The translations under genes were made by a program, and so were the position numbers. A stretch of DNA of 64,000 nucleotides from Escherichia coli (GTDB lineage: Bacteria > Pseudomonadota > Gammaproteobacteria > Enterobacterales > Enterobacteriaceae). A model generated the notes under the pieces. It was not told the DNA's origin. It saw only the letters and a list, made by a program, of their open reading frames with translations, and searched no databases. Where the stretch lies: NCBI RefSeq assembly GCF_003334785.1, contig NZ_QOWV01000002.1. One strand, 5' to 3'. Positions 1,696 through 1,897 of this stretch are shown piece by piece (position 1 is the first letter of the stretch; the number at the start of each line of letters is the position of its first letter).

Positions 1696-1897
1696 TTAAT
1701 TCGTAAAACGTGCTACCGATCACATTAAGAAATCAGCGCTTATTTTTTCGCTCCCCGGCATTACGCAATGCGCAGCGAACTCAGGCATACATCAAGCATA
1801 GAGAGGGATTGCAGTTTGCAGCAATCCCTCTTTGCAGACCTTTAATCCGCTGACCATAGGCGCTAACATAGCGCCTCATTTTTTTGCGGGTGATGAT

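Follow-up and report, generated by a model that had tools for sequence, protein, structure and literature searches.

A Perfect Inverted Repeat between the Divergent yohJ and dusC Promoters of Escherichia coli Is Probably a Near-Neutral Palindrome

The spacer between the divergently transcribed genes yohJ and dusC of Escherichia coli contains a perfect inverted repeat that is probably a neutral or near-neutral palindrome in unconstrained DNA, with no conserved regulatory job. The initial annotation of this DNA had allowed that the repeat might be a regulator binding site, an attenuator-like structure, or nothing, and it is the last of these options that the evidence favors. Against this reading stand the 11 + 11 bp palindrome itself, which is locally improbable, its perfect state in 76% of complete E. 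coli genomes, and its center at −59.5 of the dusC transcription start. A statistically unlikely palindrome that lies outside both transcripts and outside both conserved blocks of its spacer counsels caution against inferring function from symmetry alone. The analysis also yields a map of the spacer that includes the yohJK and dusC promoters, a YieP-like box, and a CRP site (Table 1), and it reveals the yohJ/dusC junction as a mosaic insertion site. Positions are those of the window, the whole 64-kb stretch of DNA that was analyzed, unless a coordinate of MG1655 (NC_000913.3) is given.

Geometry, Chance Expectation, and Predicted Folding

The repeat had been described as near-perfect and as spanning 1801–1831. 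An inverted-repeat search of the window confirms that it is real, but its two 11-nt arms (1802–1812 and 1821–1831) are 100% complementary, and the earlier span was one base too long at the 5' end. With limits of at least 11 bp per arm and at most 12 nt for the loop, the window contains five distinct perfect inverted repeats, compared with 0.21 expected by chance from dinucleotide shuffles; at least two of the other four resemble terminators or REP-type palindromes. When the 238-bp intergenic region was shuffled 20,000 times, 12 shuffles matched the level of the repeat, which is locally improbable by chance, that is, nonrandom at the local scale. For the whole E. coli genome, simple arithmetic (4.6 Mb × 13 loop sizes / 4^11) gives ~14 such repeats by chance.

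The predicted RNA fold of the repeat has a free energy of −23.8 kcal/mol on the plus strand (z = −6.3) and −21.5 kcal/mol on the minus strand (z = −5.5), and the predicted DNA hairpin −13.4 kcal/mol. Across 4,920 E. coli genomes, the 30-mer formed by the arms and loop occupies a median of one and a maximum of two places per genome, and the only other match to a repeat arm in the window carries one mismatch and is due to chance. The hexamer TTGCAG occurs three times in direct orientation at 1809–1814, 1816–1821, and 1832–1837, partly within the repeat, perhaps by chance.

Transcription Starts and Layout of the Spacer

The initial annotation correctly placed the repeat in a divergent yohJ/dusC promoter region, and the gene names are confirmed by the RefSeq annotation of identical E. 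coli DNA. The window DNA is E. coli K-12-like, and comparison with NC_000913.3 2230301–2230720 anchors it to MG1655 by the relation window = 2232283 − MG1655 coordinate; in NC_000913.3, dusC occupies 2229438–2230385 on the minus strand and yohJ 2230624–2231022 on the plus strand. SMRT-Cappable-seq (Supplementary Data 2, in NC_000913.3 coordinates) places the single start for b2140 (dusC) at 2230407 (reverse strand) and that for b2141/b2142/b2143 (yohJ-yohK-cdd) at 2230602 (forward strand) (PMC6131387). These maps cover M9 and rich medium only and hold one start per gene (PMC6131387).

Relative to the mapped dusC start, the repeat spans −74 to −45, the start lying 45 bp downstream of the repeat, and the putative dusC −35 element begins 10 bp past the repeat end. 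Relative to the yohJK start it spans −121 to −150, and yohJK transcription runs away from it. Given that dusC transcription starts at 1876 and yohJK-cdd transcription at 1681, the repeat is contained in neither mapped transcript. A promoter consensus scan returned no site in 1500–2100 despite the two mapped starts there and is too strict for these promoters.

Just ahead of the dusC ribosome-binding site, a conserved 8-bp hairpin, AGGCGCTA-ACA-TAGCGCCT, followed by seven T residues (1858–1885), was called by the terminator scan. The mapped dusC start is the final base of the 3' arm of this hairpin (1858–1876). The element was found in 54–62 of 80 Enterobacterales loci, with at least seven of the eight stem pairs in 34, and in the island alleles described below it lies 16–135 nt past the stop of a co-oriented monooxygenase gene. 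In this element, an upstream terminator and the dusC core promoter seem to be combined. The GCGCC discriminator of the dusC promoter resembles those of stringently controlled promoters.

Table 1. Features of the yohJ-dusC region (window coordinates)
Feature	Position	Strand	Remarks
cdd	ends near 440	−	
yohK	569–1264	−	
yohJ	1261–1659	−	ATG at 1659
yohJ-dusC spacer	1660–1897		238 bp
Mapped yohJK-cdd start	1681	−	NC_000913.3 2230602
YieP-like box, reverse complement AATTGTATGATGAAT	1683–1697	−	10 of 10 high-information positions of motif atTTGTaTGAcaAAT; overlaps yohJ −10
yohJ −10, TATGAT	1692 to 1687	−	agrees with mapped start
CRP site, aaTGTGAtcggtaGCACGttt	1706–1726	−	footprinted in vitro, listed as dusC/yohJ (PMC12871828); conserved in spacer alignment
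Variable middle of spacer	1732–1839		Escherichia-specific; replaced by ~7.5-kb mhb/gentisate island in other alleles
Left arm, AGAGGGATTGC	1802–1812		carries uncompensated E. coli variants G1803A, T1809A, G1811A
Loop, AGTTTGCA	1813–1820		8 nt; inverted-repeat search
Right arm, GCAATCCCTCT	1821–1831		inverted-repeat search
Putative dusC −35, TTTAAT	1841–1846	+	from mapped start and conservation of CTTT block; 17 bp upstream of −10
Putative dusC −10, TAACAT (TAcCAT in most genera)	1864–1869	+	−12 to −7; in loop of conserved hairpin 1858–1876
Mapped dusC start	1876	+	NC_000913.3 2230407; 5' UTR 22 nt
dusC	1898–2845	+	ATG at 1898

The Repeat as a Possible RNA Element

Like intrinsic terminators and leader attenuators, the repeat is predicted to form a stable stem-loop when written as RNA. 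The attenuator-like role suggested for it is, however, contradicted by the mapped starts: the repeat lies upstream of both and so is not made into RNA, and it cannot act as an attenuator or a terminator. Directly past the stem come TTTGCAGACC on the plus strand and CTATGCTTG on the minus strand, with TTTGCAG (plus) where a terminator has its U-tract. The terminator scan did not call the repeat, although it called 1858–1876 with its T7, and this separate element, at 1858–1885, is the real terminator-like hairpin of the spacer. The portion of the Term-seq tables covered here has no 3' end in 2230300–2230599, where low expression could mask weak ends (PMC7815308).

In the same portion of these tables, the only local 3' end is at MG1655 2230706 (window 1577), inside yohJ (PMC7815308). 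It falls 83 nt into the yohJ ORF, just past a hairpin, ATGCCTGCCTGTATGCAGGCAT, followed by TTTTC (window 1577–1604, minus strand), which the terminator scan also called, and it may represent a premature termination or processing site within yohJ.

A search of 1400–3400 against Rfam gave no match near a gathering score, and a eukaryotic snoRNA model, with 16.9 bits where its gathering score is 80, is the sole Rfam overlap with the repeat; we rejected the repeat as a known RNA family on this ground.

It is quite improbable, in our judgment, that the repeat acts as an RNA hairpin in an unmapped transcript, stabilizing, pausing, or terminating that RNA. Candidate transcripts would be a plus-strand read-through or divergent RNA from near the yohJ promoter, or an RNA on the minus strand that diverges from the dusC −10, which is symmetric. 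The fold predicted on either strand is very stable, and the downstream hairpin with its T7 could terminate a plus-strand RNA. Genomic SELEX with RNA polymerase holoenzyme lists the spacer as containing a dusC promoter, for which Shimada et al. give the hexamers TCAACA-18-CATCAT (PMC3946193). A start from these hexamers would place the repeat in a long leader; however, such a start finds no support in the capped 5' ends, there being a single capped start per gene and both starts lying outside the repeat. The Cappable-seq supplementary data gave no hits. The missing U-tract, the lack of an Rfam match, and the lack of 3' ends in the Term-seq tables as covered here also count against an RNA hairpin.

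The variation in the arms bears on the same question. Some of the Escherichia differences are C-to-T changes that retain G-U pairs on the plus strand, but others retain them on the minus strand only and one on neither. Since G1803A and G1811A disrupt pairing on the plus strand and T1809A disrupts it on both, neither strand is favored, and we found no covariation signal for RNA structure among the Escherichia arm changes. ORFs of 21–47 aa span the repeat on both strands, and their frames are shifted in sister species by a 1-nt and a 35-nt indel, which argues against an RNA that carries them. A small protein encoded across the repeat was itself rejected, given these frameshifts (the 1-nt indel being that of the loop), the loss outside E. 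coli of the ATG at 1857 (minus strand), and the absence of a start site upstream.

Known Regulator Sites in the Spacer

YieP is the only regulator for which binding to yohJK and its repression have been reported, and its published motif is atTTGTaTGAcaAAT (PMC7642389). We find a match to this motif 105 bp from the repeat, in a YieP-like box that is invariant in the 22 aligned intergenic regions and whose position over the yohJ −10 fits the reported repression. The repeat resembles the YieP operator of yohJK in being a palindrome within the yohJ-dusC spacer, but its sequence is unrelated to the motif, and it was rejected as the YieP operator. It was likewise rejected as a CRP site: the footprinted site is the one at 1706–1726, and the repeat contains no sequence like TGTGA-N6-TCACA. 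Relative to the mapped yohJK start, this CRP site has its center at about −35, from which activation by CRP is unusual. The yohJ-proximal control block (1683–1726) is nearly invariant across genera. Comparison of the repeat by eye with the motifs of sigma-54 (−24/−12), PurR, CytR, Cra, OxyR, and LysR-type regulators (T-N11-A) gave half-sites at best and is not relied on here.

Conservation across Enterobacterales

Conservation in related genomes had been named as a check on the palindrome, and its lack as a refutation; the outcome goes against a conserved function. No genus other than Escherichia has the palindrome, sister Escherichia species have it in degraded form, and about one quarter of complete E. 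coli genomes lack it or carry a mismatch. A scan for DusC with one genome per species gave 80 Enterobacterales loci, in 21 of which yohJ is the immediate neighbor; together with the window, these 21 loci form an alignment of 22 yohJ-dusC intergenic regions. In this alignment, the ~95 bp adjoining yohJ, which contain the YieP-like box and the CRP site, are nearly invariant, and the ~60 bp adjoining dusC are conserved as CTTT...GAGgCGCTAcCATAGCGCCTC followed by a T run. The middle, which contains the repeat, is unalignable and very variable in length. Short-word BLAST of 1700–1900 against the 80 loci found 1786–1857 in just four Escherichia loci, whereas the dusC core promoter is kept in 54–62 of the 80, including genera in which yohJ is not adjacent. 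An analogous palindrome of other sequence in other genera was also considered and rejected, as arms at the equivalent position reach 3–6 bp at best, which is background level.

Many genera have other genes between yohJ and dusC, for example a LysR regulator with an acetyltransferase-like gene, a methionine-aminopeptidase-like gene, or an mhb/gentisate cluster. The mhb/gentisate island found ahead of dusC in some E. coli alleles also precedes this gene in Salmonella diarizonae, Citrobacter sedlakii, and Klebsiella grimontii.

On the neutral reading that we favor, the regulatory information for yohJK would reside in the ~95 bp adjoining yohJ, where the −10 element lies under the YieP-like box and is accompanied by the CRP site, and that for dusC in the ~60 bp adjoining dusC, which would comprise the −35, the −10, and the GC-rich discriminator inside the conserved hairpin. 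Both blocks are conserved in Enterobacteriaceae; the DNA between them, repeat included, differs among lineages by replacement, deletion, or the entry of gene islands.

Variation within Escherichia

The Escherichia locus L002 differs from the repeat by one arm mismatch, G1803A, and the sister-species loci L001, L003, and L006 differ by 2–4 arm positions and a loop that is 1 nt longer (AGCTTTGC-type). Their right arm, with two or three differences, is GCAATCTCACT in L001 and L006 and GTAATCTCACT in L003, and includes ATCTCACT where E. coli has ATCCCTCT. Just upstream, at ~2855–2889 of these three loci (corresponding to window 1785/1786), are 35 extra bp with small inverted repeats of their own, such as CTGTT-TCGC-AACAG; K-12-type E. 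coli apparently lost these 35 bp by a deletion flanked by CA microhomology.

The 30-mer is present in 4,920 of 5,426 complete E. coli genomes, perfect in 4,117 and with one mismatch in 803. Each of the nine variant genomes sampled has either T1809A or G1811A in its left arm, uncompensated in every case. The repeat is absent from the other 506 genomes, 366 of which carry an O157-type island allele; there, a wholly different sequence precedes the dusC −10, and the −35 region reads TTGTCT. Genes of the ~7.5-kb island encode a LysR regulator, MhbT, a gentisate dioxygenase, an FAH-family hydrolase, a maleylacetoacetate isomerase, and a 3-hydroxybenzoate 6-monooxygenase. In the allele of L005 (E69 type), the island abuts CTTTAATCC, the monooxygenase gene stopping 3 nt before it. 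All island alleles retain dusC and its core promoter, and this persistence in alleles without the repeat suggests that natural strains can dispense with it. Among eight Escherichia sequences (seven from E. coli and L002), 3 of 30 sites vary in the repeat, ~9 of 75 in the rest of the variable middle, and 1 of 77 in the yohJ-proximal block; the density of variable sites in the repeat equals that of the rest of the middle and is far above that of the block.

The yohJ/dusC junction (window ~1732–1857; L081, L094, L095, and L005) is a mosaic, and E. coli alone has four or more types of allele there, among them the K-12 type in 4,920 genomes, the O157 type in 366, and the E69 type. In O157:H7 strain TR01, the switch from island-type to K-12-type sequence falls inside the repeat loop. 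Between the monooxygenase stop and dusC, the O157-type allele also has a palindromic, GC-rich sequence of repeat-like character, GGTCCCCTCGCCCCTTCGGGAGAGGGTTAGGGTGAGGG (2440–2500 of L094 and 281–340 of L095), which resembles enterobacterial intergenic repeat elements.

The Repeat as a Possible Operator

The idea of a regulator binding site holds up in one respect, in that a dyad centered at −59.5 of the dusC start is plausibly placed to act on this promoter; it falters in another, in that the palindrome is not conserved in related genomes. Dimeric activators can work from such a position by class I activation. The repeat could thus be an operator for an E. coli-lineage-specific dimeric transcription factor that activates dusC in this manner or represses it by looping, or, less plausibly, one that acts on yohJK from −135.5. 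We consider such an operator unlikely. Its case rests on the perfect dyad, the spacing of 10 bp between the repeat end and the putative −35, the local improbability of the palindrome (12 of 20,000 shuffles), and the 4,117 E. coli genomes in which it is perfect. The orthologous promoter, however, is shared by 54–62 of 80 loci and the palindrome is confined to Escherichia and degraded there, appearing in no other genus. Large E. coli lineages have fixed arm mutations without compensation, and where island or other alleles replace the spacer the repeat is gone, yet dusC and its core promoter remain. There is, moreover, no second similar site in the genome and no YieP or CRP motif match, and the searchable literature gave no report of protein binding at the repeat. 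The supplementary data of a 40-factor ChIP-exo survey (Gao 2021), in files that may be incomplete, have no dusC or yohJ entry.

Class I activator and operator dyads at sigma-70 promoters, such as CRP sites near −61.5, provide the closest model for this alternative, as they share with the repeat a dyad immediately upstream of the −35. The repeat differs in being much longer and more perfect, in having no known binder, and in being unique in the genome; 22 perfectly symmetric base pairs are atypical for operators. It also differs in that it is not conserved with the promoter and tolerates both one-sided arm mutations and full replacement in natural lineages. The narrower proposal of a young, E. 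coli-lineage operator for a dimeric regulator that tunes dusC in class I fashion, perfected recently by selection or by retention of a templated mutation, is doubtful and seems to us a shade less likely still. Were the repeat an operator, the gain would be a single lineage-specific regulator site for a nonessential tRNA-modification gene, dusC encoding a tRNA dihydrouridine synthase.

DNA Structure and the Mosaic Junction

The location of the repeat between divergent promoters could also point to a structural role of the DNA, namely, a cruciform or hairpin extruded under negative supercoiling that would act as a sink for supercoils or constitute a fragile site promoting rearrangements of the junction. 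The stability of the predicted DNA hairpin, the mosaic state of the junction with its multiple E. coli alleles and its differing inserted genes in other genera, and the allele junction of TR01 within the repeat loop are all in line with this proposal. However, a stem of 11 bp with a spacer of 8 nt would form a cruciform poorly, and the main island junctions fall at ~1731 and at ~1840 or ~1857 rather than at the repeat. TR01 is one of 5,426 genomes, and genera without the repeat show the same degree of mosaicism at this locus. We regard this role as very improbable.

Origin of the Repeat

We rejected the repeat as a remnant of the mhb/gentisate island, given that the middle segments of K-12 and L006, aligned locally with ~9 kb of island sequence, score no better than shuffles. 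The idea of a repeat family or mobile-element end was rejected as well: the repeat is single copy in E. coli and has no true plasmid or phage counterpart. A search for the segment found no phage match and no true plasmid match, and just five plasmid-database records contain it complete, three of which are 4.8–4.9 Mb and hence mislabeled chromosomes. The repeat resembles REP/BIME and boxC-type elements as an extragenic palindrome in an enterobacterial spacer but differs in being single copy, unrelated in sequence, and not located at a gene 3' end; REP-like palindromes do occur nearby (2900–3130), as does the GC-rich repeat in the O157 allele.

In E. coli mutagenesis, quasipalindromes are known template-switch sites, at which imperfect inverted repeats are perfected by intramolecular strand switching. 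The repeat is similar to such sites in that sister species have an imperfect version and in that two E. coli right-arm substitutions lie 2 nt apart and both create complementarity, as one templated event would. The perfect symmetry of the favored near-neutral palindrome may thus have arisen by template-switch "correction" of an imperfect palindrome like that in sister species, after which the palindrome would drift, a course suggested by the uncompensated E. coli arm mutations. The likeness is limited in that the direction of change is not firm and in that template switching would account for the origin of the repeat, not for a function. In a rooted yohJK tree, L001 is nearer to E. coli than L003 and L006 are, a placement that would make the imperfect state ancestral; this direction is weakly supported, because the rooted dusC tree, which also includes these three loci, disagrees with the yohJK tree. 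The right-arm differences that improve pairing could also reflect selection rather than template switching.

Other Elements in the Window

Downstream of dusC, 2900–3130 contains GC-rich REP-like palindromes, including a repeat with 12-bp arms at 3077–3108, and an Rfam TwoAYGGAY match in this region is below threshold (29.7 bits vs. a gathering score of 43). The 27-aa yohP ORF comes next, on the minus strand near 3220–3303. Elsewhere, a perfect 36-bp palindrome, AAAGCCGAAATCATTTATATAAATGATTTCGGCTTT, followed by TTTAT, occupies 39843–39878, 30 nt past a 93-aa ORF (39532–39813), and looks like an intrinsic terminator.
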